A stretch of DNA of 64,000 nt from an uncultured bacterium (GTDB lineage Bacteria; Babelota; Babeliae; Babelales; RVW-14). Shown one piece after another: positions 5,232 to 63,927 of the stretch (the first letter of the stretch is position 1; each line of letters begins with the position of its first letter). The notes under the pieces are model-generated. The model had not been told where the DNA came from and made no database searches. It worked only from the letters and a program-made list of their open reading frames with translations. The stretch is from positions 67,585-131,584 of the forward strand of contig CAVXAT010000005.1 in the NCBI GenBank assembly GCA_963759805.1. Reading direction: 5' to 3'. The position numbers were made by a program, and so were the translations under genes.

Positions 5232-6890
5232 ATGAAGCTTTATTTTAAATACTTTATTTTAGTAACTATATTAATTTCATATCAGTCGATTTATTCAGAA
5301 AATAAGGGTCTCGAAAATTGTGGGAATAGCTGCTACTTCAATGCATCATTACAAGCATTATCGCATCTTGATAAATTCAATTCGCTACTTCAGGAAAATT
5401 TATACGCACCTGATGATCTTATTCCACGTTTTTACATAAATCTTATGGAAGAAATAAAGAAGGGGCCTGGAACAATTTCCTGCAATTATAAATATACAAA
5501 TTTGGATAATAAAACTGAACGAAATTTTTATAACTTGGCGGGAGATTTGTTTTTTGGACAACAAGGGCAGCAAGAAGATGCCCCTGAGTTTATACAGAAT
5601 CTTTTTAAAAATATCATAGAAAATTCGTCATACTATAGGACAATTAAAGAATTAATAGAAAAAGAAATCGAACCTATATTCGATACAGCCTTCAATAAAA
5701 TTAGCCCTAATGATAAAAAATTTGCGCAACCTGTTGTAAAGGCAAAGGCATCCTTGTCCGCAAAAGAAAATGAGACTTTACAAAAAATACATTCACGTTT
5801 TTTTGAAAGTTTTGCTAAAGGATTAAAAATAACAAGAGAAGATTTATTAACAAATATCCTAGATCAATGTATAGAACTTTTAGATAGGAATCCCGATATT
5901 TTCCAAGCAAATTTATTTAACAACCTTAAAACATCTGAAACACAAGCAAAAAAGATAATAACTGAAACAGAAGTAAAAAGGATAGCAAAAAGAATAGTAA
6001 AAGCAAAAAGGATAGTCACTGAAACAAAAGCAGAAACCATTGCAAAGAATTATATAAAAACTATAGATGAAACATTTAAAAATGCATTAACTAACTACAA
6101 AAACATACAAATTGATGAAGATCAACCTATAGAAGTTGAAACCTACACAGGTAAAGGGAATCCAACAAGAAAATTTACACCTACTGATGATGGTTTGAAC
6201 AAGGCGACAACCCTCATAAAAAATCTTTCTTTAGCAAAGATGGAGACTAATCTCGAACCAATCTTTAATGGTATTAATGGAACATTTTGGAAATTTCCAG
6301 AAGGGAATTTATCAGAAGTACAAAAAAATTTAACTGCCATAATAAATTTAAAAAAATATTACCCTTATTGGTTACAGTTAAGCATCCCCAATAAAAAAAC
6401 AAATTTAAAAGAGCTAGAAGACCTCGAATCCATTGAATTAGAAAAAGCATTTCCTTATGTTATTGTTTGGCTAAAAAGATACAAAAATGAGGAGGGGAAG
6501 TTACAAAAAAATAGTACCACCATACCTTTTGAAAACCAAATCAATCTAAAACATGTAACCAAATCATTAAAATATAATCTAATTGCTTTTGTAGTTCAAA
6601 GCGGCAGTACCGGCGAAGGCCACTACTGGGCTTACGGAAAGGATAAAGATGATAAATGGTGGCGATATAATGACCCAAACGTAACCGACGCTTCGATAGA
6701 AGACGATGACAAAAAAAGCATTAAGGATATCTTCGAAACTGGCCTAGATCGCAATAAAGCAACCCCTTACGTTCTCTTCTATGAACTTGAAGAACCACTT
6801 AGTCTACTCAAGTCATCATTGCAGAAACTTAAAACAAAAGTGGAAATGTTGCAAGAGAAGTTGGGAACGCTGAGGGGTAAATTGGGATAG
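5232..6890 (+). CDS. secreted eukaryote-like ubiquitin-specific protease (USP, peptidase C19)
   Basis: Cys box KGLENCGNSCYFNASLQAL, QQEDAPEF box, His box QSGSTGEGHYWAY...WWRYND, terminal PYVLFYE; signal peptide; C-terminal leucine zipper. Confidence 0.9.
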   Translation: MKLYFKYFILVTILISYQSIYSENKGLENCGNSCYFNASLQALSHLDKFNSLLQENLYAPDDLIPRFYINLMEEIKKGPGTISCNYKYTNLDNKTERNFYNLAGDLFFGQQGQQEDAPEFIQNLFKNIIENSSYYRTIKELIEKEIEPIFDTAFNKISPNDKKFAQPVVKAKASLSAKENETLQKIHSRFFESFAKGLKITREDLLTNILDQCIELLDRNPDIFQANLFNNLKTSETQAKKIITETEVKRIAKRIVKAKRIVTETKAETIAKNYIKTIDETFKNALTNYKNIQIDEDQPIEVETYTGKGNPTRKFTPTDDGLNKATTLIKNLSLAKMETNLEPIFNGINGTFWKFPEGNLSEVQKNLTAIINLKKYYPYWLQLSIPNKKTNLKELEDLESIELEKAFPYVIVWLKRYKNEEGKLQKNSTTIPFENQINLKHVTKSLKYNLIAFVVQSGSTGEGHYWAYGKDKDDKWWRYNDPNVTDASIEDDDKKSIKDIFETGLDRNKATPYVLFYELEEPLSLLKSSLQKLKTKVEMLQEKLGTLRGKLG

Positions 6891-6906
6891 AAAATAAAAA
6901 ATTAAG

Positions 6907-7276
6907 TGGAGGCGATGGGATTTGAACCCATGTCCGTAATACCCAGCTCTTCGAGCACTACATGCTTAGTTCTTATTTATACTTCTACTATGCTGCAAGA
7001 ACACAGGACAAGTAAAAGCCGGTTCAGTATACAATCCGGATACACTACCAAAAAGTCTTTCCAGAAGGTTCTATCTGATTATACGTGTATGCTAGGCTGA
7101 TAGACACGTCCGCATACAAGCCATAGATGCCCTACTTAATTAAGCAGCTGCAACTAAAGGACTACTCACATTGGAATAGTTTGCATTTATGTTTTTGAAC
7201 GTTGATTAACGAGTTCCATTCAAAACTCGGCATGCTCTCAAAGCTCTTGACACTACGTCGAAGCCAACACGCCCCC
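6907..7276 (-). ncRNA. ssrA: tmRNA; tag peptide (A)ANYSNVSSPLVAAA* at 7184-7140
   Basis: 5' GGGGGCG pairs with 3' CGCCTCC-A including the G3.U wobble; T-arm GGGTTCAAATCCC; ATAAAT-GCA resume context; tag ends AAA-stop; CCA not encoded. Confidence 0.95.
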
Positions 7277-8882: not shown

Positions 8883-11102
8883 ATGAAGTTTGTTAAGGCT
8901 ATTTTATTAATATTTTTAATTACAACATCTTTATCTCCGATGAAAAAGCCTGGTAAAAGCGTCATGCCAACGAAAAAGCCTGGTAAAATTGTCGTACCTG
9001 TGAAAAAGCCTAAAAGTGTCGCGCCAATAAAAAAACCTAAAAGTGTCGCGCCTGTAAAAAAACCTAAAAGTGTTGTGCCTGTAAAAAAACCTAAAAGTGA
9101 ATTGCAAGTTAAATTGGAACAACTAAAATCACCCTTGGCCGAATTAAGAACCAAGTTAATGAAATTGCAGGAAAAGCTTGAGTCTTTGAGAATATTTCTA
9201 GACCCGGTAACCGAAGAAAATATCTGGGATAAAATAAAAAACTTGATACAAAACCAAAATGGTAATGAATTTAATCTTAAGCCAGAAATAATCGATGAAT
9301 GGATGTTGCTTGACAATCAACTCGGTACATTAAAAACTGATATGACTAAAATCAAAAATGATATTGTAATCGACAATGAATATTTTAAAGGAATTAGATT
9401 AGCAGATTATGCACCTGTTTTATATGCATTTGGAGATGATGTAAATAAAAGCAACGAAAGAGCCGTAATGCTCTTTAAACGTTTATGTGAAAAGGTAACA
9501 CCTATCATATTGGATACAACTCCAAAATCTTGCAATTCTATAGGCAAACGAATAGAACAACTAGAAACTCATCATGCCGGTATGATTGGATTCTTCGCAA
9601 GGAAAAATGCAGACAAAAGAATACAAGACCTTTATAACAAAAAACACGACCAGCTTAATATCGTGTCTAAATTAATTGATGAAATAAAAATAGGAATGTT
9701 CAATAGATTGCAAGAGGTATTTTTTTATTTATATAAAGGATACACATACAAAAATCAAATGGGTGCCCCAACGCCTATATCTATTATCGACGCTAATATT
9801 GCAAACAAAAAAGCACTCATTGAAAACTTTGCACTACAATTTAACAGAGGGTTTGATGTTATTGATAAAGTATTTATTAATAGTTTTAGCGTTTGGCGTT
9901 ACACGTTTGCAGGACAGCATAACATAGATGATATTGATTCAGGGGGAATACGAAGAGTTGCTATTTCCGACCTTGCTGCTTACTATAATTCGAAAGCAGA
10001 AGAAAATGGATTTGATAATAATGCAACTCGTGAAGCATTTCCAAAACTCATCTGGTTTCTGCTTGCAAATATGTTCAAACCAAGCCGCGACTCTCTTTTA
10101 ATCCAGGCTTGGAACAACAATCATGATGTACAATTTGATGGGTTTTCTGCAATCATAAATCTCCCACTGCCATTTTGGGGCACATTGCTATCTCAAGGCT
10201 CACTTGAGATTTCTGAAGATGATACGAAAAACGTGTTTACAGAACTTGGTATGCAAGGTGCAATAGTAGGCAACCTAAAAGATGCCTTAGGTTGCGATAC
10301 AGACAAAGAAACCATTGATGAATTAAATAAAAAGATCAAACTTAAGGATAAATACATTCAAGCACTCAAATTAAACAAGATCCTTTCGTTTGAGGATAAA
10401 GTAAAAAACATGCTCAGCCGATATTTAGCCTCAAAATATCACATAGATGAGATCAAAAAAGACTTCTGGCAGGATGCCAACCTCGTAAATTTAAGACGGG
10501 ATGCAGGTGTGGATGAAGACACCTTATTATCAACCGGCGCATTTCTTGATAATAACGAAATTCAACGCCATCTGAATAATGGCAACGTACAGTTTTTACT
10601 CATGAGGAAGTTTCTTAAAGAATTAAATTCTCAACACTTGTTCAATATGTTTAATAAACCACCAATGGCTCAAGAAATTAAAGATATGATTGTTGAAGGA
10701 GTTAGACAGAATAGATATGCTATCAGTTCAGAAGTGACTGATGCAATCACCCTATCAGAAACATTCATAAGGGATTTATTCGCAAGAAAACGATTAGAGC
10801 TACAGGCTAACAGCACAGATCCCTCCCTCCAAGCACAAGTTTTGATACTCAAAGCAATTGTATGGACTTTTAACTTTATCAACGAAAATGCTGGTGATGA
10901 AAAAGAACAAATAGATATTCGTACTGGATTTGTAAAATTTGTTACTGGTCAATCACGCCCAGCATATATGGTAGTCACTACACAAACAATTGGAAACTTA
11001 GAAGCTCATACCTGCTTTAAAACGATAAACATTCCTGAGCAGTTGCTACAAGCAGATGATTATAATTCATTCAAAATCGCTCTTATAGGTGTTGTAAAGT
11101 AA
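8883..11102 (+). CDS. secreted HECT-type E3 ubiquitin ligase-like effector
   Basis: C-lobe FVKFVTGQSR...AHTCFKTINIP (Cys codon 11013-11015); N-lobe-like FAGQ..IDSGGIRR; signal peptide, basic repeats, leucine zipper. Confidence 0.8.
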   Translation: MKFVKAILLIFLITTSLSPMKKPGKSVMPTKKPGKIVVPVKKPKSVAPIKKPKSVAPVKKPKSVVPVKKPKSELQVKLEQLKSPLAELRTKLMKLQEKLESLRIFLDPVTEENIWDKIKNLIQNQNGNEFNLKPEIIDEWMLLDNQLGTLKTDMTKIKNDIVIDNEYFKGIRLADYAPVLYAFGDDVNKSNERAVMLFKRLCEKVTPIILDTTPKSCNSIGKRIEQLETHHAGMIGFFARKNADKRIQDLYNKKHDQLNIVSKLIDEIKIGMFNRLQEVFFYLYKGYTYKNQMGAPTPISIIDANIANKKALIENFALQFNRGFDVIDKVFINSFSVWRYTFAGQHNIDDIDSGGIRRVAISDLAAYYNSKAEENGFDNNATREAFPKLIWFLLANMFKPSRDSLLIQAWNNNHDVQFDGFSAIINLPLPFWGTLLSQGSLEISEDDTKNVFTELGMQGAIVGNLKDALGCDTDKETIDELNKKIKLKDKYIQALKLNKILSFEDKVKNMLSRYLASKYHIDEIKKDFWQDANLVNLRRDAGVDEDTLLSTGAFLDNNEIQRHLNNGNVQFLLMRKFLKELNSQHLFNMFNKPPMAQEIKDMIVEGVRQNRYAISSEVTDAITLSETFIRDLFARKRLELQANSTDPSLQAQVLILKAIVWTFNFINENAGDEKEQIDIRTGFVKFVTGQSRPAYMVVTTQTIGNLEAHTCFKTINIPEQLLQADDYNSFKIALIGVVK
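8943..9098 (+). repeat. tandem 27-30 nt repeats encoding KKP(G)KSV(A/V/M)P(V/I/T), five full units plus a partial one
   Basis: aaaaa(g/a)cct(ggt)aaaagtgtcgcgcc units seen directly. Confidence 0.9.
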
Positions 11103-16531: not shown

Positions 16532-17242
16532 ATGATTTTAAAAAAATTGATTTCAGGTTTAATTGTAGTACTTATTAGTTTAAATTTTGCCATGTATCCG
16601 GTAGACGGTGAGTCGGAGAATTTAAATTTGGTTCATGGTTGTAAGGAAGACAGCAAAGATCAAAATTTGGATGGCAATGAAGGTGGTAAACCAGCCTGTA
16701 ATGATGAGTGTACAGGTGCCGATATCGATAAACAGCTTTTGAATTTTATATATACAATCTTTACAGAAGATGAAATAAATGAGATGAATCAATCTGCCAA
16801 AGACAAGAGTTATACAGATTTGAAAAAAAAATGTGGATGCAGAATGTGGTTTAACAAAAATTATGATTGTGCAGAAGTATACTTATGTGATGAACATTTC
16901 CGATATTTTGAGCTTTTGCATGCGCCAGAATCAGATTCAGAGAATTCCAATGGTACAAGTAGCAAACCAACGATCAAAAACGAGGCGCTACAAATCAGTA
17001 ATGAAGGCAGGGCTACACAAGGTAACACAAGTATTAATAGGGGCATTTGTAACAGTGATTTGTGTAAAGGTGATATAGATTTAGAAAATATAAATATGGA
17101 GGATTTTCGTGAATATAATTGCACAGATCACGCAGGCAGTAATATGGGAAACAAAACAACTGGAGCTGTAAATAGCCATAAAAACTATGATGCATCAGGT
17201 ATAGGCTTTACTGATATAACCTTGGAAGATATAGATCATTAG
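16532..17242 (+). CDS. small secreted Cys-rich protein (CxC..CxxH family), copy 1
   Basis: Signal peptide nearly identical to that of 57141; CGCRM..DCAEVYLCDEH motif. Confidence 0.8.
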   Translation: MILKKLISGLIVVLISLNFAMYPVDGESENLNLVHGCKEDSKDQNLDGNEGGKPACNDECTGADIDKQLLNFIYTIFTEDEINEMNQSAKDKSYTDLKKKCGCRMWFNKNYDCAEVYLCDEHFRYFELLHAPESDSENSNGTSSKPTIKNEALQISNEGRATQGNTSINRGICNSDLCKGDIDLENINMEDFREYNCTDHAGSNMGNKTTGAVNSHKNYDASGIGFTDITLEDIDH

Positions 17243-43319: not shown

Positions 43320-43336
43320 CTCTCTCCTAATTTTTT

Positions 43337-43364
43337 GCGCTCATCCTGAGCCTGTCGAAGGATC
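43337..43364. repeat. palindromic element gcgctcatcctgagcctgtcgaaggat
   Basis: Reverse complement of the copy at about 33376-33401. Confidence 0.8.
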
Positions 43365-43385
43365 ATCTTTCTCCTAACTCCTTTT

Positions 43386-47343: not shown

Positions 47344-47364
47344 ACTACTCTACCTATCGACTAA

Positions 47365-50417: not shown

Positions 50418-51647
50418 CTAAAGCCAATAAATTCTTTCAATTCTAAAAACTTTCTTGTTCTTTTTTTGTTCGGTTTTTGACTGTTCAGTCGATGACTGTT
50501 CAGCTGATGTCCCACCAGTTTGAGCAGACTGTTCATTACTACTACTCTTTTCATTCTGAACTCCCGATTTTGACTTTCTGCTCTTAACTTCAATCTCCCT
50601 TATCACTGCAAGAACTCGCTGCTCAACCTGTCCCACTTTACCATACGATAGAACAGAATAGACTTTCGGATTAAATTTTTCAACTAAAATGTCTTTTATG
50701 TTGGATAAGTCCTTTGGCTTGGTGTCATAAATGCCTTCAAGATTCTTCCAATTTGCATCCCAATCTTTACCCCAATCATCCTTAAATTCCATCGCAAGTT
50801 TTTTAAATCGCTCTTTATATTTTTTTGCGTCATCTGCCCGGGGTCTTCGAATGACCAAAAAAGCACATAACGCATCAGAAAGTAGCATTGGATCAATTTT
50901 TGCATCATCAGTCCATGTGGTAAAAATATCCTGTATAGCAACATCTCGGCTTTCCTGCGCTCCCTCTTTCTTTAAAAGAACTGGCGGCTCATAAAAAATA
51001 TCTGTTGTAAGAGCTTCGAGCCCTGGAACATTTAGCAACTCGGAGACATCATAAAGTTTTTTTTCTCGTTTTTTCAAGAACTCTGAAATTTTGTTAAAAA
51101 ACTCGCCAGGTTTAAGTTTTCCTGGAATTTCAAGTCCCACTAACAAACGTTCAAATTCTTTTTTGAACTCCTGTTTTTTAAAATCAAAAGCGTTATTTAT
51201 ATTTATTTTTCCATGCTCACTTGTAATACATATTTTTACGGTACCTGCAATCCCATCAATTTTGCGATCAAGCTCAAAGGTCTGCCACCTATTTAAATTT
51301 GAGAGCAAATTAAAAACAAAACGCTGCAGAGGCGTAACTTTTTTCCCATCAGCATCTAGTTCAGTTTCAGTTCCTGTTTCACTCTGTCTTGCTGGGGTCT
51401 TATCTTTATCCGAATTCTTATCTTTATCTTTTTCAGGTTTATTTTTTTTATCTTTGTTATATGTAAGTTGGGCAATTGCTATGTTGATGCCGCCAAGAGC
51501 AAGCATTTGGGCGTGTTCACGATTAACCATGGCCTTGGTAAACCCGGCTCCAACCATGACACCACGAATCATCTGCTCGGTCATCATAACGATGATTGAG
51601 ATTATCATTAACGAGAAAAGTAAAACTGCCGCATTAGACTTTTTCAT
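50418..51647 (-). CDS. gspK: T2SS minor pseudopilin GspK-like
   Basis: N-terminal hydrophobic helix, ALGGINIAIA, SEHGKININ, VSELLNVPG; position after gspF-J. Confidence 0.75.
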   Translation of the reverse strand: MKKSNAAVLLFSLMIISIIVMMTEQMIRGVMVGAGFTKAMVNREHAQMLALGGINIAIAQLTYNKDKKNKPEKDKDKNSDKDKTPARQSETGTETELDADGKKVTPLQRFVFNLLSNLNRWQTFELDRKIDGIAGTVKICITSEHGKININNAFDFKKQEFKKEFERLLVGLEIPGKLKPGEFFNKISEFLKKREKKLYDVSELLNVPGLEALTTDIFYEPPVLLKKEGAQESRDVAIQDIFTTWTDDAKIDPMLLSDALCAFLVIRRPRADDAKKYKERFKKLAMEFKDDWGKDWDANWKNLEGIYDTKPKDLSNIKDILVEKFNPKVYSVLSYGKVGQVEQRVLAVIREIEVKSRKSKSGVQNEKSSSNEQSAQTGGTSAEQSSTEQSKTEQKKNKKVFRIERIYWL

Positions 51648-51654
51648 AAATTCT

Positions 51655-51816
51655 GCCCGCCGCCCTCCGGGCGATGGTTCGATACGCGCACAGAGTGCGC
51701 ACTCACCACGAGCGGGCCTTTAAATTCGCTCGTCCTGCTGTGCCCGGCGTAGCCACGTAGGGCGAAGCCTGGGAGTGTTTTGCGAGGCAACGCTGAGCAA
51801 AATGTATCGAAGGATG
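51655..51816. repeat. nested palindromic element pair between gspJ and gspK
   Basis: ttcgatac..ctcaccacgagcg and cgctcgtcctg[tgcccggcgtagccacgtagggcgaagcctgg]gagtg..gtatcgaagg. Confidence 0.8.
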
Positions 51817-51852
51817 CGAATGTAGAAGCGATAAGTTTATTACTTCTTTTCA

Positions 51853-52905
51853 TCACTGACCTCCTGAAGTTGCTGGTACACCTGCACCAGGCTGGGCCGA
51901 TGCTGGAGCTTTTTTACCCGAACTGTCTTTTTTCTTTTCAATCTCTTTTAATAACGAAAAACTCATAACAGGAAACGTTGCTTGTAAAGACTGCGTCTTT
52001 ACAAGCTTTTCATACCAAAACGTTATATATACATTAACTCTGTTTGGTACAACCCCCATGGTTTGGCTATTCTCGCCCCACACATCAAAAACTTTTTCTT
52101 CGATTTTTTCTTCATCTTCATCACTCTCGCCTGCCTCAATCTGGGCAGCCGTAAGCTTTTCTTTGCTTTTTGGCCTACCTTGATAAACATACTGAACAAA
52201 AAACTCTTTGATCCCGTCTGCCACTAAAATTTTTCTGATCTGAGTCGCTTTGCTTCTTGTTGTAAGTCCAACCTCATCCTCTTTCAATTTAATATTTTCA
52301 AGGTTTTCCGTCTCTTTACGCCACAGGTCATAACAATATATATCACCTTTACTGCGTTTTTTATCAAGCACAAGCTCATACATAACACGCACAAAGCGTA
52401 CTCTACTTTGTCCATAGACCTGAAAAGGATTTGTATTAATAAATGTTACATTTTTAAACTGATAAGTGCGAGTGCCGTCTATTTTTTTTGCCACACCATT
52501 GTCATTGATACTTGCAAGAAAGTATTTTTTTAAAGTCTCACGCCGTTTCTCTTCGGTTTTTTTCTTCTCTTCAGGGGACTTGTCCCCTGTTTTATCTGAA
52601 TCTTCTTCATCAGAAGGCTCCTTTCCCTGATCACTTTTTTCAGCAGATTTGTCACCTTTTGCATGAGCCTCTTTTTCCGGAGTAATTCTTTTTAAAATGG
52701 GGGGAATAAGGGCACTGGTGAAATCACACTCCATCTGATTAAACAGTAAACAGGCTTTCTTATTGACAGCCTGCATCTCTTGAATCGTTTTTAAGTAGGA
52801 CATTATATTGTTATAAGCTTGCATCAAGCCCACAATAACTATGCTGGACAGCGCAATTACGAGTATAAGTTCAATAATTGTGAATCCGGGCCTGGCTAAT
52901 TTCAT
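51853..52905 (-). CDS. T2SS pseudopilin GspJ-like
   Basis: Prepilin motif PGFTIIELILVIAL. Confidence 0.75.
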   Translation of the reverse strand: MKLARPGFTIIELILVIALSSIVIVGLMQAYNNIMSYLKTIQEMQAVNKKACLLFNQMECDFTSALIPPILKRITPEKEAHAKGDKSAEKSDQGKEPSDEEDSDKTGDKSPEEKKKTEEKRRETLKKYFLASINDNGVAKKIDGTRTYQFKNVTFINTNPFQVYGQSRVRFVRVMYELVLDKKRSKGDIYCYDLWRKETENLENIKLKEDEVGLTTRSKATQIRKILVADGIKEFFVQYVYQGRPKSKEKLTAAQIEAGESDEDEEKIEEKVFDVWGENSQTMGVVPNRVNVYITFWYEKLVKTQSLQATFPVMSFSLLKEIEKKKDSSGKKAPASAQPGAGVPATSGGQ

Positions 52906-53303
52906 TTTTTCTGCTCTTCTTTTTTAGGCTGAAAAACAAAACTCACCATTGATGATTCCCTAATGTTTTTATTCATCTTCCAAATTGCATCAGATCTAAC
53001 TATTTTTAGATTCTTGGACAGATCATGCAGACTAGATTTTTTGTTTATATCACCAAGTTCGGATGTAATTGTTATGGCCGGCTCTTCTATTTTCTGTACG
53101 TTTTTTTTACCTTTACGTGGGGGTTTGAAATAATTTGCATAAAGTTCACGTTTGATTAAAAAAACCTTTTCTATATCATCTCGATTTTCTTGTACTCGCA
53201 AAAATGAACGCATCATGAGACCTGAAATAATAAAAACAGTCGTCGTAAGGACACCCATTGCAAGAATGACTTCGATTAACGTGAAACCTGGCGAATGCTT
53301 CAT
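52902..53303 (-). CDS. T2SS pseudopilin GspI-like
   Basis: Prepilin motif PGFTLIEVILAM. Confidence 0.75.
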   Translation of the reverse strand: MKHSPGFTLIEVILAMGVLTTTVFIISGLMMRSFLRVQENRDDIEKVFLIKRELYANYFKPPRKGKKNVQKIEEPAITITSELGDINKKSSLHDLSKNLKIVRSDAIWKMNKNIRESSMVSFVFQPKKEEQKK

Positions 53304-53890
53304 TACAACTCCGGCTTTATAAAATCATCATACTGTTCAAATTTTCCATAAAACGGTAACATCTTGAAACTTACACGCGACTCAACGCCTTTTTCTGTTC
53401 TTACAAGATGTATAAGAACGTCCTGGACAAGACCGTCATGAACAATGTAGCAGCATGGATCGCCAAATTTGTCTTCCAACTCATTCTTTTTACCATGATA
53501 AAAAGCTTTTATTTTAACTGACGGATGAAACTTATATGGAAGTTTTAAGTAATATGATGAAACAGGCGTATATATTTTCTTTCCCGGTTTTTCCGGATCT
53601 AGTTCCTCTTTTTCTATGATCATTAAATCAGGTGCATTACTGTTTGATTTAAATTTAAGCCGATAAACAGCCTGATTTGAAATGGCTTCCTGCCGTGCAA
53701 AAAGAGCAAGATTATTAAGATCATACAAAATGGTACTCCAATCAGACTGCGGATTTTTATATGCAAGCCTTGGAATAATAAAGGTTGCCATCACTCCTAT
53801 CAGGAAGATGACAACCATCATTTCAATCATTGTGAATGCACGTTGCTTTGTAAACGCATGTCGCTTTGCAAACAGATGCGCAACCGTCAC
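53303..53890 (-). CDS. T2SS pseudopilin GspH-like
   Basis: RAFTMIEMMVVI..ARQEAI. Confidence 0.75.
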   Translation of the reverse strand: MTVAHLFAKRHAFTKQRAFTMIEMMVVIFLIGVMATFIIPRLAYKNPQSDWSTILYDLNNLALFARQEAISNQAVYRLKFKSNSNAPDLMIIEKEELDPEKPGKKIYTPVSSYYLKLPYKFHPSVKIKAFYHGKKNELEDKFGDPCCYIVHDGLVQDVLIHLVRTEKGVESRVSFKMLPFYGKFEQYDDFIKPEL

Positions 53891-53893
53891 TCT

Positions 53894-54340
53894 TTATTCT
53901 CCGATATGCATTTGGGGCTCTTCTTCAGTGCCTTTGCCAATCCAGATAATTTCATAAGAACGATATTTATCTTTAAACTTTTCAGGAGGGCAGTTGTAAA
54001 TAAGTTCAATGCCATCACTGTCGAGAATACCCTTTTCGCCCTCTGCAATGTAAGGCCATCTGCCCAAGCGCTCAAACTTGCGATACTCCTCGTCATTTGG
54101 TCTTGGATTTTCAATCAATGCCCTTAACCCTTCGCGAGAAGAAGGACAAGATCCAAAATCCATTCGATATCCCATTAATGCAGACTTAATTGTCGACATT
54201 CTAAGTTGCATCTTGGCCTCGGTTGCTCTCTGCATATATTTTGTAACTTGAGGGACAACTATTGCAGCAATAAACCCGATAATGAGAAGAACAACCAACA
54301 TCTCTATCATCGTAAAAGCCTTACTTGATCTTATTTTCAT
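53894..54340 (-). CDS. gspG: T2SS major pseudopilin GspG
   Basis: KAFTMIEMLVVLLIIG..VVP, ALMGYRMDFG.CP..EGLRALIENP. Confidence 0.85.
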   Translation of the reverse strand: MKIRSSKAFTMIEMLVVLLIIGFIAAIVVPQVTKYMQRATEAKMQLRMSTIKSALMGYRMDFGSCPSSREGLRALIENPRPNDEEYRKFERLGRWPYIAEGEKGILDSDGIELIYNCPPEKFKDKYRSYEIIWIGKGTEEEPQMHIGE

Positions 54341-54356
54341 AAAATTCTCCAAATCC

Positions 54357-54396
54357 TGTCATCCTGAACTCGTTTCAGGATCCATGGATTAATAAA
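54357..54396. repeat. palindromic element tgtcatcctgaactcgtttcaggatccatggattaataaa
   Basis: Reverse complement of the elements at 21233 and 29132. Confidence 0.8.
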
Positions 54397-54402
54397 AATT
54401 CC

Positions 54403-55623
54403 CTAAATTCCTGCCAAGTCAGTCATACTCATAATTGGCAAGAAGATAGACGCCATAATAAATACAACAACAACACCCATCACGACTGTCATGACAGGAT
54501 TAATTTTTGCAGTTAACCCTTCGGTCAACTCTGTTAACTCCTTATCATAATCACTTCCCACACTTGAAAGCATTTCCCCAAGCTTGCCTGATTGTTCACC
54601 CGTTGAGATCATATAAATTGCAATATTGGGAAAAATCCCCGTCTCACGCAAGTATTTTGAAATTTTACCCTCTTTGATAATTTTGTCACGAGCCTGGTTT
54701 AACTCCTTAACAAGAACGGCATTATCAACAATATTACAAACAATATCCAAAGCTTCAGATAAGTTTACACCACTTTCAAGAAGCATACCCAAAGTTTTGC
54801 AAAATTGCACAACGGCCCGAGTTTTTGAAAAATACGCTGTCAATGGAAAGCGTAACAAAATAGAATCAAACTTGTACTTGCCCGATGGCGTTGATTTCCA
54901 GTACATAAAAAATATAACGGCTAAAATTAACCCGACCCCCAAAAGTATAAAATTATTAACAAAAAAATCAGACGTAGCAATCAGTATACGAGTAGGTAGT
55001 GGTAAATCTTTACCCATCTGCACAAACATATCTTTTAATTTGGGAACCAAGCCAACAAGAAGTCCGACTACCACAAGTACTGCAAACGACATCACAACAA
55101 TCGGATAGGACATCGCCTTTTTTACATTTTTTTTCGTCTCTTCTGCCCGCTCAAGATACTCGGTTAATCGAAGTAAAATCAGATCAAGCTTTCCACTTGC
55201 TTCACCCGCTCGAACAAGTTGAACATAAACATTTGTAAATATCTTTGGATATCGTGCAAGCTCTTTGGCCAAAGACTGTCCGGATTTAATCCCATCCTTA
55301 ACGCGTATCAGTATTCGGCGAAAGGCTCCTTCAAACTGTTCGGTCAGAAGCTCTATCGCTTGTAAAAGAGGAACAGAAGATTTCAAGAGGACAGATAACT
55401 GTTTTGTAAAAAGAATTGTACTGCGTGAATCTACCTTTTTTTCAAACAAGCTTTTGAAAGAAAAGCCGGTCTGCCCTTCTATCGCCTGGACTTCCTTAAT
55501 ATTTATCGGCAAAAGGCCTTGCCCCTGCAAAATTTCTTTTGCCATCTGTAGCGAATTGGCATCTACCGTCCCGGTAACTTTATTTCCACGTCTACTATAA
55601 GACTCATACTGATAAAGAGGCAT
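54403..55623 (-). CDS. gspF: T2SS inner-membrane platform protein GspF/PilC
   Basis: FTKQLSVLLKSSVPL, RAGEASGKL, AMSYP, GEQSGKL. Confidence 0.92.
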   Translation of the reverse strand: MPLYQYESYSRRGNKVTGTVDANSLQMAKEILQGQGLLPINIKEVQAIEGQTGFSFKSLFEKKVDSRSTILFTKQLSVLLKSSVPLLQAIELLTEQFEGAFRRILIRVKDGIKSGQSLAKELARYPKIFTNVYVQLVRAGEASGKLDLILLRLTEYLERAEETKKNVKKAMSYPIVVMSFAVLVVVGLLVGLVPKLKDMFVQMGKDLPLPTRILIATSDFFVNNFILLGVGLILAVIFFMYWKSTPSGKYKFDSILLRFPLTAYFSKTRAVVQFCKTLGMLLESGVNLSEALDIVCNIVDNAVLVKELNQARDKIIKEGKISKYLRETGIFPNIAIYMISTGEQSGKLGEMLSSVGSDYDKELTELTEGLTAKINPVMTVVMGVVVVFIMASIFLPIMSMTDLAGI

Positions 55624-57140: not shown

Positions 57141-57842
57141 ATGTTTTCAAAAAAAATCGCTTCAGGGTTAATCGTAATCCTTATTAGTTTAAATTTTTCT
57201 ATTTATGCAGTCGAAATGGATTTAGAAAAGATAATCCAGGATGTTTCATACGAATATTTTTCCAAAGGCTATAGTAAGTCCTTCGAAAGTATTGACAGCA
57301 TGAAAGATTGCGAATGCACAATGGAGGAACCCGAAGCTTCTGATTACATAAAAATATGTCTATGCAAAAAATTTTTTCAAATTTTGGATATTTGGTGGAG
57401 TATATTTTCAAAATCAGATAAGAATGAAGAAAAAAGAAACAAAGCCATTATTGACGGAGATTTAAATACAAAACCATTGATAAAGGATTTGAGAAATATA
57501 TTCCTGGGTTTTTTGTGCAAATTTTTTTTAGTAGATAGTAGCAAATCATTGAAAGATGGTGACTGTACAAAAAGTTGCGGATGTAAAATGCTGCAAAACA
57601 AAGATTCTGATTGTGCAGATATATATATATGCAAAGAGCATTGCCTTGTTGTGGAAACATGGGGCGAGCAGGTGTTAAAATTAACAGAAGATTCAGGAAA
57701 GGAAGCTGAAAGCGAGACTCTATCAGATGGCTGTGGGTGCAAGATGGCAACAGATCGTTGTTGTTGCCAAACCATATACATATGTGAAAAGCATCTTCTA
57801 GACCTAGAAGCTTTGGGCCAACATCGCTCAGATTCTGACTAG
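57141..57842 (+). CDS. small secreted Cys-rich protein (CxC..CxxH family), copy 2
   Basis: Three CxC(T/K)M..I(Y/C)(I/L)CxxH/F units; GGAGG RBS. Confidence 0.8.
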   Translation: MFSKKIASGLIVILISLNFSIYAVEMDLEKIIQDVSYEYFSKGYSKSFESIDSMKDCECTMEEPEASDYIKICLCKKFFQILDIWWSIFSKSDKNEEKRNKAIIDGDLNTKPLIKDLRNIFLGFLCKFFLVDSSKSLKDGDCTKSCGCKMLQNKDSDCADIYICKEHCLVVETWGEQVLKLTEDSGKEAESETLSDGCGCKMATDRCCCQTIYICEKHLLDLEALGQHRSDSD

Positions 57843-57852: not shown

Positions 57853-60359
57853 TCAATTTGCGCCATGTAGACAATCTGTTAACACTTGCAATTTCGAGCT
57901 TAATATTAAAAGTTTTTCCTTAAGTATGCCCAGTGAATTTTTAAGTTTTTTAAGTTTTAGTTTTAATTGTGTTTGTTGTTCAAAACTTGCCCATTCACTT
58001 GGTGTAATGTCAATCCCCTTATTCATTGCTTTTTTAATATCTTCAGGATCAAGCCTAACAATAAAGTCTTTAAGTGATAAAACACCTGATGGATTTTTAA
58101 TTTTGATGTTTGTATTTTGATATTGGAAAAGATCCTTAATTATTGGTAGTTGCGTGTAATATTCAGTTGGACTCAATTTGGCTAAGAATGTAAGGCCTGC
58201 GCTGGCAATATATTTTTCATATTTATCTTTAGAGTTTTCAAATCGCCAAAGAGATTGTGATTTGTTTGCAAGCAAATCAGGCTTCTGATTTAAGTAAAGT
58301 TCCTTATTTAAACTTTTAAGAGTCCAATATTCCCCTTCAAACTCAAATGCTATATCCACATTTAGAATCGTTCCGATTGATTTCACTGATGATGTTTTAA
58401 TAAAAACATTCTTTAAAATTATTTGTTGCTTTCTAATATTTTTCGACTCCAAGAATATTTTGAAGCTGTCGTTTCCATCCAAAATTTGAGAAAAATCATT
58501 AAATCCTTCAAGCTCTTTTATAAAGAATGTCTTTTCAGATTCTCTTCCACGTAAAATTAAAAAACTATCACGTAAAAAATTAAGAATGCCGGTTGCTACT
58601 GGTGTTTCTTTCGAATTAGCAATAGTGATTTTTGCAAATAGATTAATGCTGTCTCCTCGCTGCATAGAAATAATTTGTGGATAGATATAAAAATTTTTCT
58701 CTATTTGCATATCGCTATAAATAGTGTCCAAGCATGGAATTGATGGAAAGTATTTATAAGTATTAAAGAGCCACCAAGTTACATAATTTTGGCAAAAAGC
58801 TTTGGCAGTTATATGGTATTTTGCGGGAAATATATTAAGATTAGCAAATACAATTTCTGAATATAAAAGTAAAGCCCATTTTTTGTTGATATCAACTGTT
58901 CCTATTCCTGCAAAATCCATTTTTTTTAGGCGGGTTATTATTGTTACTTTTTTAACTTCCGGTGGATTTTTCCTTATTCAACCTCTTCGTTTTTAACGAA
59001 TTCTGGCTTTGCTAATGCCTTCATAATGGTGGCGTCGGTTATTTTTTGTATATCGGGACTGATATCAAAAGTCTGAATCCAGCCGACTTCCGGAATCCAA
59101 ATTTGTGGAAAATTAGAAGGTCCATATAATACAGAATACCAATCTTCAATAAGGCATAATTGTTGTAAAATTCCATTAAGTCCGCTGTTTTTTTCTAATT
59201 TTTTAAGTTTAGCCTTTATTTCAACGGATTCTGTTGTTTTAGATTTTATAGCATTTATTTTGTCTCTAAACAATTCATAGCGATCTTGAAAGTTATCCAA
59301 AGCTTCGAAATACTTGTCAATACGATTAAAATTTTTAAATTTTTCTGCAGTAACTCTAAATATTGTGGTATCCGTGATCGAATCAACTATTAACATGTAT
59401 TTCATTCTAATTGGTATATCGTTTTTGATTTGCATCAAATCTAAATTTTTCCCACCAGAATAACACGAGCTTATACGTAACGATTTGGTATTAAGTTTAT
59501 CATTGAGAAAGAGCAGGGTATTAACAATATTATCAACAGACATTCCTGCTATCGTAATATCCTCTTTTTTTGAAGAATAGCTTCCATGCCCAAATATATA
59601 TATATTGCATGGTGGTAATGAGCTTAATTCGTATAATTCATATTTAAAAGGCTTATTATCAACTGTTACAGTTTTTACCTCTTTTATCGGAAGTTCATTG
59701 AAAATCAAAGATAGCTGATTGGAATTAAAATTTTTATGCTCCGGAGATAATAAATCTTCTACATCCGTTTTTACATCCTCCGCATAAGGAATATATTTCA
59801 AATTTTTATTTGATAGCAATCTTTTGGCTTCGATTGGTGCATCATCAGCCCATGATATTTTGGGAAAATTATTTACAACATCAATTAGCTTATTCACCAT
59901 TGCAAATATTGGAGATGCCCCATTGTATTCTTTGCCAGAAGAAAGATCAATTTGGGTCCATTTGCTTTTATTAAAAACAGTGTTGTGGTAATTTCTTGGA
60001 ACAAAAACAAAAAATTGGGTATCGTTGATTGTGTAAATGTCCCACTTGTTTAAGTCTACATCAAAACGCTTAAGATATGTGTCTGGATTTTTGGTATATC
60101 TTCTCAGTATCATATTTTTCAAAATATAATTTGAAACGATTATTGCGCATGATTTGCATTGAGAGAGTGTACGTGCAAATTCGCATGCTGCGGCATCATA
60201 TCCATTGCTACCAAATTTTTCGTTATGCTCATCAATGAAAAAAGCAATTCTAACTGGCTTGATATTTTCAATAGTTGTAGTGTCTAGTGTTTTTGCAGCA
60301 AAAATATTTGAACTTAAGAAAAGCCCCAACAATATCATTATCTTACGCATATTATTCAT
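57853..60359 (-). pseudogene. large secreted clan-CD-like protease, copy 2, split by a frameshift at about 58975
   Basis: ORFs 60380-58974 and 58920-57853 align end to end with the paralogues; GAAGAGGTTGAA-TAAGGAAAAATCCA lacks about 10 nt relative to copy 3. Confidence 0.8.
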
Positions 60360-60558
60360 TCCCCTGCTCCTTTTTAACAAAATAATTAAAAGTAAGTTTT
60401 GGGTATTCTAGTATTATGATGTCGCATAAATAAAGTAAATTTATAAAATTAGAATGGTATTAGCCATCGATATTATTTCAAATGAGCAATTGTTATAAGA
60501 GTAAATTTTACATCAAACTCTTTCCGAAATAAAACAGTGGTGTTAACAATGGGGGTGC

Positions 60559-60636: not shown

Positions 60637-61287
60637 ATGTTCAATAAAAATATTTTTTTAGCTTTGATAACAATTTTTACGTATTTAAATTTTGTCACCT
60701 GCACAACAGGAGAGAATCTTAGTATTCCTAAAACAGGAGATACTGTAACTAATATTTCTAGCGATGGAGAATGTGATTTGGAAAGCCTAATTCAGTTTAA
60801 AAGCATAATCCAGTTTGTTGTGGATAAGTTTTTAGCGCTTGATCAAAAAAGCGTAGAGGGTTTCATGAATGACTTAAGGTGTAATGGTTGTAACTGTGAT
60901 TTTTTCAACTATGATTTTTTCGAGGAACATGATTCTTCAGAAAATACAAAGATTATTATTTGTAAAGGACATAGCAAGCAAATAGATATTTGGGGAAAAT
61001 TGTTTTCAAGTGATAAAAAGTCAAATTGTACATGTGAAAAAACAAAGAAATCGCTTCGATGGATTGGTGGTATTAGGGATATTGTAACTATAGGTATTTT
61101 TTATAAATACTTTTATTTTTATAACAGTGATCATTGCAAAGATGGAAGCGATGTTAAAAAATGCGAATGCAAAATATTGAAAAATGCAACAGCTGAATGT
61201 ATGGAAGTATGCTTATGCAAAAAACATTTTGAAGCTTTGAAAGCCTGGGAACACCAAATGTTCCATTTACGTATGGTGAAAGGTTAA
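60637..61287 (+). CDS. small secreted Cys-rich protein (CxC..CxxH family), copy 3
   Basis: CNC..IIICKGH and CECKI..ECMEVCLCKKH units; signal peptide. Confidence 0.8.
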   Translation: MFNKNIFLALITIFTYLNFVTCTTGENLSIPKTGDTVTNISSDGECDLESLIQFKSIIQFVVDKFLALDQKSVEGFMNDLRCNGCNCDFFNYDFFEEHDSSENTKIIICKGHSKQIDIWGKLFSSDKKSNCTCEKTKKSLRWIGGIRDIVTIGIFYKYFYFYNSDHCKDGSDVKKCECKILKNATAECMEVCLCKKHFEALKAWEHQMFHLRMVKG

Positions 61288-61449
61288 GCCACTAGTTTGA
61301 ATAGTTGGACTCCCAAGGCTTGGCCTCAAGATTTAGTTTGAAAACGATGATGCTGCGCTATGCTTATTCTTCAGCGGCTTGATACGCTTTAAAGCAAGGT
61401 GAATACTACTTTCTAAACCCGGTCATGAATTTGAAAAGTGATAAAAAGC

Positions 61450-63927
61450 TTAATGATGTAATTTAATTTCCAACTGCTCTAAACGAGTCCTTAAAATTGA
61501 GAATTTTTCCTTAAGGTTTATCAAAGAATTTTTTAATGTTTTGAGTTTTATTTGCAGGCGAGTTTGTTGTTCTAGGCCTACTTCTGATTGAGTCTTATCT
61601 TTAAGTTTTTGTCTTAATTCAGACTGATTTTTTTCAAGTTCAAATTCTTTCCATTGTTCAGCTTTAATTACAGGAGCTTGCTGAATTTCTTTTTGAATGT
61701 CATCAGGCTTTAGTTTAATAATAAAATCTTTTAATGATAAGGTTTGAGCTGGTTTTTTTATTTGGATATTTGTTTTTTCACGATGAAACATATCTCTAAT
61801 TACTGGTAATTTAGCATAATATTCGGCAGGGTTTAAATTGGCTAAATATGATAGATTTGATGATTTAATATTTTCCTCATGTTCAGTACTGCTTTGTTTA
61901 AAATGCCAAAGAGATTGAGATGGGATGGCGCTTGATATTGAAAGATGTAAATCTTGTTTCTTATAAATAAGAAACCATGGCTTTCCGTTAAATTCAAATG
62001 AAAGCTTGATGCTTGTAAATTCTTCACTTACGAATTCCATTGAAGTTTCGATGAAAACATTTTGCAATGTTATCTGTTTTTGCTTCAAATTTTGCGAATC
62101 TAGTTCTTTTTTGAATGGATCATTTTTATCCAAAACTTCCGAGAAGTCGTTAAATCCTTCAAGCTCTTTGATAAAAAATGTTTTTAATGAAATTCTATCA
62201 CGTAAAATAAAAAAGCTGTCACGCAAAAAATTAAGAATTCCATTTTCAATAAGTGGTTCTTCAGAATTTTTCAAAATACTTATTTTTGCAAATAGATTAA
62301 GACTATCGCCCCTTTGCATGGATATGATTTGTGGATAAATGCAGAAATCATTTTGAGATGGAAAATATTCATGTAAATTTGGTAACCATGGAGATTTGAA
62401 TGATAATAACCATAGAGGTAATTTTTTTTGTGAAATATTGGAACTTATTCCTAGTGTGACATAAATGATTTCAGAATACAAAAGTAAAGCAAATTTTCCC
62501 TTAACATCAATGGTTCCAGATTCTGCAAAATTCATTTTGTCTAGCCGGCTTTTTATTATTACCTTCTTAACAATCGGTGGATTTTTCCTTACATCTTCTA
62601 TCTCTACCTCTTCATTCTTAACAAACGTCGGTGCCGCCAATGCGTTGATAATCGTAGCGTCAGTTATTTTCTTGACATACGGGTCAACATTAAATGTTTG
62701 AAACCACCCAATTTCAGGAATCCAAATTTGTGGAAAATTATTAAGCCCATAAAGTTCGTAGTACCAGTCTTTCGTTAAAGGTAAACTTTTTAGAATTCCA
62801 TTAAACCCGCTATTTTCTTCCCGTTCCTGTATTTCCGTTTTTATCTCTTTTTCAGCTTCACCTGAAAGTAGTCGTCTTTTTGCTTTAATAGCTTTTAATT
62901 TTTTTACAAAAATATCATAACCTCCCTGAAATTCTTCTAATGCTTCAAAATAGCCTTTTATGTCAACTCGTGAGTAGTCTTTTGCGGCTTTTAACGTAGC
63001 CACATTTGGAGCATCTGTAATTGACTCAACAATTAATAGATACTTTATTCTAATTGGTATGTCATTTTTTATTCGCATTAAATCCAATCCTTTACCACCT
63101 GCAAAGCAGGCAGATATTCGTATGGATTTTGTATTTAGCTTATCATTGAAAAAAAGCAATAAATTTGCCATCTCATCTGATTGGATTCCTGCAATAAAAT
63201 GTTTTTTGTCGTATGATCCCCCATGGCCTGCTATGTATATATTACAAGGCTGTGCTAAGCTCAGTTCCTCATAATTTTCAACTGGCTTAAAAATCCAAGA
63301 TAATTGAATTGGCTCAAATTTTTTCTCTGGCAGTTTGTTTGTATCTATATTATAAGAACGCCAATCTTTGGTATATGGAATATATTTTAAACCTTCATGT
63401 GATAATAATTTTTTTGCCTTAATTGCAGCCGTATCTTTCCACTGTATAATGGATCTGTCCTCATCGTCTTTATCACCTTTATATTCTTTAAGTTTATCGA
63501 AATCAATCTTATTCCATATTAAATTGCCATCGATTCTTAATGTTTTGTTTAAAATTGGACTGTCATAGCCAGGTCGAACAAAAACAAAGAATTGAGTATT
63601 TTCAATATAGTAAATATCCCAATCATTTAAATCAAAGTTAATTGTTGTAATATCCGGATCTGAAGTTTTTGTATATTTTCTTAAAATCATGTTTTTTAAA
63701 ATGTAATCTGAAACAATTATGATATCTAAAAATTTTTGGTGAAGTTCTGCGGCAAATTCACGTGTCATTGCGACACTCCCATTACTAGAATATGTCTCAT
63801 CATGATTGTCAATATAAAAACCCATTCTGATAGGTTTGATATTTTCACCAGATGCAGCCTTCTGATCTTGCATTGCAAAAATATTTGTACTTAGTAAAAG
63901 CACCAACAACATTACTCTCTTAAACAT
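61450..63927 (-). CDS. large secreted clan-CD-like protease, copy 3
   Basis: MFKRVMLLVLLLSTNIFA; CNIYIAGHGG...IRISACFAGG; C-terminal leucine zipper. Confidence 0.78.
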   Translation of the reverse strand: MFKRVMLLVLLLSTNIFAMQDQKAASGENIKPIRMGFYIDNHDETYSSNGSVAMTREFAAELHQKFLDIIIVSDYILKNMILRKYTKTSDPDITTINFDLNDWDIYYIENTQFFVFVRPGYDSPILNKTLRIDGNLIWNKIDFDKLKEYKGDKDDEDRSIIQWKDTAAIKAKKLLSHEGLKYIPYTKDWRSYNIDTNKLPEKKFEPIQLSWIFKPVENYEELSLAQPCNIYIAGHGGSYDKKHFIAGIQSDEMANLLLFFNDKLNTKSIRISACFAGGKGLDLMRIKNDIPIRIKYLLIVESITDAPNVATLKAAKDYSRVDIKGYFEALEEFQGGYDIFVKKLKAIKAKRRLLSGEAEKEIKTEIQEREENSGFNGILKSLPLTKDWYYELYGLNNFPQIWIPEIGWFQTFNVDPYVKKITDATIINALAAPTFVKNEEVEIEDVRKNPPIVKKVIIKSRLDKMNFAESGTIDVKGKFALLLYSEIIYVTLGISSNISQKKLPLWLLSFKSPWLPNLHEYFPSQNDFCIYPQIISMQRGDSLNLFAKISILKNSEEPLIENGILNFLRDSFFILRDRISLKTFFIKELEGFNDFSEVLDKNDPFKKELDSQNLKQKQITLQNVFIETSMEFVSEEFTSIKLSFEFNGKPWFLIYKKQDLHLSISSAIPSQSLWHFKQSSTEHEENIKSSNLSYLANLNPAEYYAKLPVIRDMFHREKTNIQIKKPAQTLSLKDFIIKLKPDDIQKEIQQAPVIKAEQWKEFELEKNQSELRQKLKDKTQSEVGLEQQTRLQIKLKTLKNSLINLKEKFSILRTRLEQLEIKLHH

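Follow-up and report, generated by a model that had tools for sequence, protein, structure and literature searches.

One short, basic, leucine-rich motif, here termed the tag, was found to be shared by unrelated proteins with signal-peptide-like starts in Babelota, which are widespread obligate intracellular parasites of protists. We identified 140 carriers in 14 genomes of one family, belonging to 64 unrelated cargo clusters. A sequence-only reading of the DNA described below had proposed an interchangeable module on unrelated, signal-peptide-bearing enzymes, and the carriers bear this out. Judged from sequence, the tag is most likely a basic half-zipper used for docking, with lipid binding and a signal for vacuole crossing as serious alternatives. 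The tag predicts an effector repertoire and gives a sequence handle on how the eukaryote-like enzymes of Babelota reach or find their host targets.

The window, i.e., the whole stretch of 64,000 nucleotides that was analysed, comes from a Ca. Babeliales (TM6) genome with 1237 genes that is 88.7% complete. Signal peptides were called by an in-house hydrophobicity rule, not by SignalP. The relevant features are:

5232-6890, forward strand: USP-family (C19) deubiquitinase, 552 aa, signal-peptide-like N-terminus, C-terminal tag (Pfam UCH, E 3.7e-29)
6786-6884, forward strand: tag copy 1, residues 519-551, one residue short of the stop (62.8 bits)
8883-11102, forward strand: likely HECT-type ubiquitin ligase, 739 aa (Atlas features, motifs)
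9102-9200, forward strand: tag copy 2, residues 74-106, near the mature N-terminus (57.6 bits)
17248-19833, reverse strand: likely clan-CD (caspase/legumain-fold) cysteine protease with further domains, signal-peptide-like start, C-terminal tag (His/Cys, fold)
17263-17361, reverse strand: tag copy 3, residues 825-857 (58.1 bits)
50418-55623, reverse strand: T2SS gspF, gspG, and minor pseudopilin genes (Pfam T2SSF, T2SSG, N_methyl)
57853-58920, reverse strand: downstream piece of a broken clan-CD paralogue, bearing the tag
57868-57966, reverse strand: tag copy 4 (55.1 bits)
58974-60380, reverse strand: upstream piece of the same paralogue, with signal-peptide-like start and His/Cys words, without tag
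61450-63981, reverse strand: third clan-CD paralogue, signal-peptide-like start, C-terminal tag (weak Peptidase_C80, E 0.012)
61459-61557, reverse strand: tag copy 5, residues 809-841 (54.9 bits)

The pattern given in the sequence-only reading had exactly five matches in the six frames of the window (6798-6884 and 9114-9200 on the forward strand; 17349-17263, 57954-57868, and 61545-61459 on the reverse strand) and no match in 200 residue shuffles of the 1237 genes; chance does not explain it. The five segments share one motif, which comprises 33 residues in five heptads and extends the pattern by one Leu upstream. Used unchanged, the pattern matched five further ORFs in the genome beyond the window. 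All five window carriers had been described as signal-peptide proteins. Four are intact and agree with this description; the product of 57853-58920 lacks a signal peptide and is a fragment of a broken gene whose two pieces lie in different frames. The window therefore contains four intact carriers and one broken carrier.

The enzyme labels proposed for these genes were retained. The USP has a UCH domain, with a Cys box at residue 31 and a His word at residue 463. In the 8883-11102 product, a signal-peptide-like start is followed by Lys/Pro-rich repeats and then the tag. This protein is likely a HECT-type ligase as judged by language-model features and motifs: 28 of its 30 Atlas matches (language-model features) were HECT clusters (top score 0.91), HECT-like words were present, and Cys711 was kept in 3/3 homologues. 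Pfam gave no HECT match, and Foldseek found nothing significant with a poor model (pLDDT 49.8). In the 17248-19833 product, His and Cys were invariant in 27/27 aligned homologues. Its structure model (pLDDT 80.5) had C11, legumain, and GPI transamidase structures as its top eight matches, though with Z of only 6.9-7.5 (rmsd 3.9-4.5 over 177-209 residues). The model and the invariant pair suggest that this protein and its paralogues are likely clan-CD cysteine proteases with a His-Gly/Cys dyad and caspase-hemoglobinase fold.

A profile of the tag gave scores of 53.5-71.4 for real carriers, vs. a best score of 10.8 in 10 locally shuffled proteomes. The source genome has 13 carriers, clearly apart from housekeeping coiled coils (gap, 53.5 vs. 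8.4 bits). The sequence-only reading had named equal matching of such coiled coils, or a lack of further secreted carriers, as outcomes that would speak against it. Neither occurred; MscS, its example of a coiled coil, scored -3.8. Leave-one-family-out scores were 30-53 bits, vs. ≤10.1 for non-members. The scan of the genome and its relatives, which the same reading had proposed as a check, revealed many further carriers, and in four genomes outside training 36/40 carriers were signal-peptide-like, vs. a background of 459/1237 (37%). A word-indexed protein search with the profile gave 14 matches, of which those named were known carriers, and a species-genome scan with the window's USP gave one locus.

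A compositional or repeat artefact, or a generic coiled coil without shared function, could account for some matches: 20 of the 106 new matches in the 1.84-billion search were simple heptad repeats or long coiled coils, and reversed tags also scored, because the motif is nearly palindromic. However, the score gap within the genome, the signal-peptide enrichment in the held-out genomes, terminal placement, single copy number, and near-restriction to one family largely refute this explanation, which we consider very improbable. The tag also matches no described family, as had been suspected. No Pfam or NCBIfam model matched more than 8/92 tags, and all such matches were weak. The bZIP leucine zipper was rejected: bZIP_1 matched 1/92 tags (E 0.009), and the tag is flanked by Pro-rich linkers or signal peptides. 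The literature searched, articles mostly from outside subscription journals and without their supplements, contained no account of the motif.

The tag was present in 15/35 genomes of the family to which it is nearly confined. Cargo types included USP, HECT-like proteins, clan-CD protease, PLA2, phosphatases, ankyrin proteins, and others. The cargo domains (UCH, RING, dual-specificity [DSP] and metallo-phosphatases, Macro, NADAR, ADP-ribosylglycohydrolase, PLA2, WH2, and ankyrin) are predicted from sequence to act on eukaryotic cytosolic substrates. Most carriers (62/82) had no Pfam match; the tag therefore flags proteins that may harbour novel ubiquitin, ADP-ribose, phosphatase, and protease activities. 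None of the 140 carriers had two copies. Among 132 complete carriers, the tag was terminal in 115, vs. 25 expected (48 N-terminal, 67 C-terminal, 17 internal), and this distribution rules out a fixed PEXEL/RXLR-type place just after the signal peptide. The tag can also sit between fused domains: genome G001 encodes a USP-tag-HECT fusion with a single tag, vs. two tagged genes in the window. Met at the predicted cleavage site was rejected as a carrier hallmark (31/132 carriers vs. 81/358; not specific).

The composition of the tag fits the basic half of a coiled coil. In 92 unique tags, Leu accounted for 89% of residues at a/d and aromatics for 1-2%, Lys/Arg for about 60% at e/g, and Asp/Glu for 3% at e/g vs. 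15-18% at b, c, and f; net charge was +4.7. Lys16 (94%), Lys18 (91%), and a small residue at position 11 (g11; 79%) were nearly fixed and were kept across the 64 cargo clusters, and e23 likewise had a conserved small residue. The hydrophobic moment had its maximum at 101-104 degrees, the coiled-coil periodicity, in 136/139 tags and at ≤100 degrees in only 2/139, a measure that is partly circular because a heptad profile had been used to pick the carriers. In the PDB, the profile matched designed basic zipper halves best.

These matches were IAAL-K3 (1u0i_B), the basic helices of sc-apCC3 (9rgy, 9rgv), and receptor-fused basic zippers (2lq4, 9nmw); Base-p1 of the "peptide Velcro" is another designed basic half. 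The tag resembles them in having Leu or another aliphatic residue at a/d and Lys at e and g, in K-coil-type heptad register, over several heptads. Unlike them, it is natural, has five heptads with small g11 and e23, and occurs in lineage dialects. We tentatively favour, at somewhat less than even chances, the reading that the tag is a basic coiled-coil half through which every enzyme docks on the same acidic partner at its site of action in the host cell. A carrier would use Sec to pass the inner membrane and the T2SS to pass the outer one. The free tag would self-pair poorly, because both of its flanks are basic, and would fold upon binding. It would then zip onto an acidic helix, which probably belongs to a protein of the host or of the vacuole surface. 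In this way, enzymes of ubiquitin, phosphate, ADP-ribose, and lipid chemistry may gather at one place. New enzymes would enter the repertoire through recombination that supplies the tag. If this reading is true, a natural basic half-zipper that can be plugged in at either end of a protein as an address label would be a novel principle for organising a set of effectors.

Pairing of tags with one another, giving oligomers of one enzyme or mixed ligase/DUB/protease complexes, is improbable. Ten Leu at a/d over five heptads would form a strongly hydrophobic seam, small g11 and e23 may remove two of the four Lys-Lys clashes in a parallel pair, and 38/143 carriers adjoin another carrier. However, there is no acidic tag class to complement the basic ones, and tags form no g-e' salt bridges with each other because all flanks are basic, with 3% acidic residues at e/g. 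The basic residues at both flanking positions speak against the earlier idea of an assembly handle, if tags are to join with each other.

A search of the 1237 genes of the source genome for an acidic partner zipper found none. On a charge-swapped profile, the top non-carriers reached 15.2 and 12.4, which is less than the basic tags themselves scored. The most acidic heptad was in a three-gene helical operon (G000:C10:32231-35537) whose first gene occurs in 243/261 genomes of the phylum. We set this operon aside as a tag-specific receptor because it is phylum-wide and its acidic heptad is unchanged with or without tags. It was also rejected as a candidate translocon, since it does not follow the tag distribution.

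A class-A amphipathic helix that binds anionic lipid, of a host vacuole or organelle or of the bacterium's own outer membrane or vesicles, and thereby anchors the enzymes, is a possible explanation, which we consider less likely than docking. Lys residues lie beside the Leu face, at the polar/nonpolar boundary, and acidic residues lie on the far, polar face. Lys was preferred over Arg at e/g (688:91, vs. 8310:2449 in the remainder of the carriers), and 109/139 tags exceeded 1.34, the threshold of the lipid-binding discriminant. The lack of a protein partner in the source genome fits this explanation as well. According to the available part of one report, the designed K peptide, which is among the PDB look-alikes of the tag, forms a coiled coil with an acidic partner and also adsorbs to anionic (PG) bilayers (PMC6531448). 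In the available part of another, a basic amphipathic helix sends Shigella IpgB1 to acidic lipids (PMC5599653). However, the periodicity of the tag is 102-103 degrees, not the ~100 degrees over full length of a straight class-A helix, on a measure biased by heptad-profile selection. If the helix were straight, positions 4 and 30, where Lys/Arg make up 43% and 65%, would lie no more than 40 degrees from the hydrophobic axis. The nearly all-Leu face, lack of aromatics, and position-specific conservation are probably tighter than lipid binding usually needs. Counted against the docking reading are the missing acidic partner in the genome, the lipid-binding features, and the existence of a non-basic (G010) and a less basic (g7) version of the tag.

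PEXEL in Plasmodium is a second-step export signal. A signal of this kind, by which a post-Sec receptor routes a subset of proteins via a secretin or across the vacuole membrane to the host cytosol, is an unlikely function for the tag. It would suit the occurrence of a single copy per protein at either end, lineage dialects that fit a co-evolving bacterial receptor, and the presence of two GspD secretins in one operon. In the available text of a paper on it, Babela massiliensis grows in a vacuole with the T2SS as the only secretion system detected and presumed export route (PMC4378268), yet the cargoes appear to need cytosolic substrates. However, secretins were present in 35/35 family genomes, the T2SS operon did not differ between 11 tagged and 9 untagged genomes, and no tag-specific gene or GspC feature was found in these operons. 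GspC has no acidic zipper, and the helical operon is distributed differently from the tag. Of the 367 proteins of the source genome that look secreted, only 9 carry the tag. USPs and clan-CD homologues with signal-peptide-like starts but no tag exist in tagged genomes and at 22 loci elsewhere. When 300 non-carrier neighbour genes were clustered, the resulting families were ankyrin proteins, ATPases, small phosphatases, and housekeeping genes; none stood out as a dedicated chaperone. A more speculative form, to which we give slightly less credence, is that the tag is a position-independent bacterial counterpart of PEXEL, by which enzymes secreted via Sec and the T2SS would cross the vacuole membrane to the host cytosol without a needle. 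A translocon not yet described would recognise the tag and evolve together with the dialects.

The T2SS does not differ between genomes that have the tag (15/35) and those that lack it, and untagged paralogues occur; both points disfavour the earlier suggestion of a general T2SS export signal. The T2SS is likely the export route of carriers without being tag-specific. The T2SS that had been placed at 50418-55623 was confirmed for gspF and the pseudopilin genes; gspC, D, E, L, and M are encoded on other contigs, and 50418-51647 has no Pfam match and is gspK-like from position alone.

Shared effector signatures are known in eukaryotic parasites (PEXEL, RXLR) and bacteria (BID, MIX, T9SS C-terminal domains), and each has a fixed position and a dedicated machine; terminal reassortment of effectors is also a known process. 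Like these signals, the tag marks an effector repertoire with unrelated cargoes and is probably spread by domain shuffling. Unlike them, it has no fixed place, lying at one end or the other or between domains, and the search for a co-distributed machine revealed none. The membrane localisation domain of large toxins is a folded four-helix bundle of about 80 residues, whereas the tag is one helix. The IpgB1 helix, as described in the available text, is similarly a short basic hydrophobic module that lies apart from the catalytic domain and positions a host-directed enzyme (PMC5599653); it is known from one effector, whereas the tag occurs on at least 64 unrelated cargo clusters, at either end, in Sec-type proteins. 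B. massiliensis belongs to the same order as the source genome and has the same kind of secreted ubiquitin-system proteins (C19 hydrolases, RING, and Ulp1-like proteins); the available text describes no shared terminal motif, with "leucine zipper" occurring 0 times and "coiled" only in methods and references (PMC4378268).

The tag sequence, as far as sequence comparison indicates, tracks genome lineage and not cargo. In 53/58 cases a tag was closer to other-cargo tags of the same genus than to same-cargo tags of other genera, as expected if all tags meet one lineage-specific partner. FastTree was used as the tree program. In the g7 dialect, the tag is shorter and has a lower positive charge (net +2.3). 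A search for other dialects in untagged genomes revealed no variant at E up to 1 in G012, G015, G150, and G151, and the G011 matches turned out to be long coiled coils. It did reveal one non-basic copy on a G010 USP, a G027 USP with a shorter helix, a possible single copy in G155, and four in G108. As a test of copying between unrelated genes, we compared synonymous Leu codons, which were shared beyond permutation in 3/9 genomes; the dialects could have arisen from such copying instead of from a partner.

The sequence-only reading had placed one Leu/Lys heptad pattern in five proteins of the window, and a search with that pattern matched exactly those sites. Alignment with further copies extended it to a tag of 33 residues, with Leu at positions 1, 5, 8, 12, 15, 19, 22, 26, 29 and 33.

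Tag copies in the window (alignment-extended 33-residue version)
6786-6884, + strand, in the USP protein (5232-6890)
9102-9200, + strand, in the HECT-like protein (8883-11102)
17263-17361, - strand, in the clan-CD protease at 17248-19833
57868-57966, - strand, in the clan-CD protease ORF at 57853-58920
61459-61557, - strand, in the clan-CD protease at 61450-63981

The ORF at 57853-58920 had been counted as an intact carrier of the tag; it is instead a fragment of a broken gene whose upstream piece lies at 58974-60380. The genome assembly comprises 1.5 Mb in 21 contigs and is 88.7% complete. The unchanged pattern matched five additional ORFs elsewhere in it, and 200 shuffles of its 1237 genes gave no match. 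An HMM built from the five window copies alone retrieved the same five outside ORFs (E at most 3e-6) and a sixth with E 0.04; the MscS housekeeping coiled coil, named beforehand as a possible refuter, was absent from its matches. The final profile found 13 carriers at 53.5-71.4 bits, the next score being 8.4. When one cargo family (the part of the carriers outside the tag) was left out in turn, the tag of the omitted family scored 30-53 bits, compared with at most 10.1 for non-members. The 13 carrier ORFs held 11 distinct tags. Nine had signal-peptide-like starts, and the other four were fragments of broken or contig-cut paralogues. Signal peptides were called by our own rule (a basic residue followed by a hydrophobic 9-mer), by which 459 of the 1237 genes were flagged. 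In four genomes outside training, 36 of 40 carriers among the matches listed (40 of 80) were signal-peptide-like; the significance of the enrichment in these held-out genomes (Fisher p 1e-11) is overstated because related carriers are not independent.

Across 14 genomes, 140 carriers fell into 64 clusters after masking of the tag and N-terminus. Among 132 complete carriers, the tag lay within 80 residues of the start in 48, within 15 residues of the end in 67 and internally in 17; the random expectation for terminal tags was 25. No carrier had two copies (0/140), and the tag flanks were ~2.8-fold enriched in Pro. The ankyrin, HD, metallophosphatase and PLA2 clusters each included both N- and C-tagged members. 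Carrier domains included UCH, PLA2_B, PPDK_N, DSP phosphatase, ankyrin, metallophosphatase, Macro, EEP, WH2, C48, RING, NADAR and ADP-ribosylglycohydrolase; the majority of carriers had no Pfam match. In one related genome (G001), USP, tag and HECT-like domain were combined in a single chain, which shows a possible origin of internal tags. The tag is optional on its cargo families: this genome has two further, untagged USP proteins, and clan-CD homologues are untagged in G002, G006, G144 and 22 loci of other genomes, some of them cut at locus ends. We regard it as nearly certain that the tag is a portable module under selection. Five tagged proteins of 1500-2150 aa (L006, L093, L147, L161 and L167) contained a PPDK_N ATP-grasp-like domain, which one of them joined to a DSP phosphatase, and a small related gene often adjoined; these proteins may be unusual secreted kinases.

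In 92 unique tag copies, heptad positions a and d were 89% Leu, positions e and g were ~60% Lys/Arg and 3% Asp/Glu, and positions b, c and f varied, acidic residues making up 15-18%; net charge was +4.7. Self-assembly of tags is improbable, since they have no charge complementarity. The Lys:Arg ratio at e/g was 688:91. Small residues occupied positions 11 and 23, and the tag was nearly palindromic around position 17, so that reversed tags also scored. No Pfam or NCBIfam family matched more than 8 of the 92 copies, and the closest PDB matches of the profile were designed basic zipper halves.

The tag occurred in lineage-specific versions (dialects). Sharing of e/g residues was 0.44 between tags on unrelated cargoes of the same genome, vs. 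0.32 for tags on the same cargo in different genera. In 53 of 58 testable cases, a tag was nearer to those on other cargoes of its own genus than to those on the same cargo elsewhere in the set of genera. In three smaller genera, the nearest other-cargo tag came from the same genus in 7/7, 8/9 and 16/18 cases (expected 0.3, 0.5 and 2.2). Either a single partner specific to the lineage or the copying of tags from gene to gene would fit this pattern; in 3 of 9 genomes, shared synonymous codons favoured copying.

We tentatively favor a reading of the tag as a basic half-zipper that would dock, where the carrier acts, on an acidic partner protein, because of its heptad geometry, near-exclusive Leu, fixed Lys and small positions, and dialects. 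No acidic partner was found in the genome (88.7% complete), and this is the main weakness of the docking reading. Direct binding of the tag to anionic lipid is somewhat unlikely; the charge layout agrees with it. For 136 of 139 copies the hydrophobic moment had its peak between 101 and 104 degrees, a value biased by heptad-profile selection, and 109 of 139 copies exceeded a lipid-binding threshold. Precedents for lipid binding are a designed K peptide with both coiled-coil pairing and lipid binding (PMC6531448) and the basic helix of IpgB1 (PMC5599653).

The boldest reading, a second-step export or vacuole-crossing signal, was considered against the export genes.

T2SS loci and a candidate translocon-like operon (G000, this genome; C, contig; L, individual locus)
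G000 C21:1-3579 and C13:12093-17728; L198-L217: T2SS operon gspC-gspD1-gspL-gspM-gspD2, whose two secretins differ, and a third, shorter secretin beside gspE
G000 C10:32231-35537 (L260, L268): three apparently paralogous, helical-looking genes of 441, 183 and 427 aa with signal-peptide-like starts

Secretins were present in 35/35 family genomes, nearly all with three; two gspD copies are noted in PMC4776705. The genes gspD1, gspL, gspM and gspD2 were found in 20/20 loci with no tag-specific difference, and gspC in 19/20, the remaining locus beginning inside gspD1. The C10 genes had no confident Pfam match. The first of them, with a C-terminal aromatic amphipathic helix, occurred in 243/261 phylum genomes, mostly as a single copy, and the operon is a candidate phylum-core envelope or translocon-like operon. 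Machinery distributed so widely makes a second-step signal rather unlikely.

A profile built from the 92 tags (cut-off E 0.001) had matches in 17 of the 261 genomes of the phylum. Fifteen of these were among the 35 genomes of the window's family, one of them with a single weak match only, and 2 lay outside it. Matches per genome reached 27; G108, outside the family, had four terminal copies. Tagged genomes fell into three clades on a FastTree phylogeny of 21 genomes of the family (midpoint root, supports 0.92-1.0), and every clade had an untagged sister; one such sister, G010, retained a single non-basic copy on a USP. We infer an old origin with later losses; transfer between lineages may also have shaped the distribution. 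USPs of G010 (L017) and G027 (L018), one per genome, had terminal non-basic or shortened Leu heptad helices, possibly decayed tags. A search of 1.84 billion representatives with the profile yielded 140 matches, of which 34 were in existing carrier sets, 20 were long coiled coils or simple repeats, and 86 were tag-like proteins new to the analysis. The tag was terminal in 79 of the 86; 54 were signal-peptide-like, many of the rest appearing fragmentary, and 43 had bodies resembling Babeliales proteins of the comparison set. Untagged genome G011 encoded adjoining, very long Gln/Asp-rich coiled-coil ORFs on contig C4 (L189-L191; frames 1300-3200 aa).

In NCBI, proteins of related genomes go under the names Candidatus Babeliales or candidate division TM6. 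Babeliales are intracellular parasites of protists, and shared targeting modules on effectors are already known. New here is a natural, proposed basic half-zipper that is position-independent and borne by a Sec-type repertoire in Babelota. The largely open-access literature searched, including accessible text of PMC6561590, PMC4776705, PMC12172432 and PMC4378268, gave no description of the motif. Babela has vacuolar growth, T2SS as its sole detected secretion system and three encoded secreted C19 hydrolases (PMC4378268). Chromulinavorax gains access to the cytoplasm, 44% of its proteins bear signal peptides, and it seems to release vesicles (PMC6561590).

For the window cargoes, Pfam and catalytic words bore out the assignment of the USP protein. 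Atlas features of the HECT-like protein gave 28 of 30 matches to HECT (top score 0.91), and we take its motifs, with a conserved Cys711, to be those of HECT; neither Pfam nor a poor structure model confirmed this. The His and Cys of the window proteases were invariant in 27/27 homologues. A protease model (pLDDT 80.5) had its eight best matches in C11, legumain and GPI transamidase, with middling Z of 6.9-7.5, and a predicted long terminal helix finishing in the tag. Three broken or contig-cut copies of one clan-CD paralogue in this genome (C3:1762-4095, C9:137-697 and C15:10403-12437) and an intact 782-aa gene of G003 (L089) had one identical tag in common, attributable to recent duplication, transfer or redundant assembly. 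Small Cys-rich genes with signal-peptide-like starts and no confident Pfam match (16532-17242, 57141-57842 and 60637-61287) lay tail to tail with each clan-CD family gene of the window, possibly as partners or co-duplicated units. At 32539-34002, an ORF that by eye is phosphoglycerate-mutase-like contained a stretch resembling a translated GC-rich insertion and continued into an LptC-like region. Three paralogous-looking secreted genes lay at 39996-48610, two of them with WD40-like beta-propellers within a common N- and C-terminal frame.
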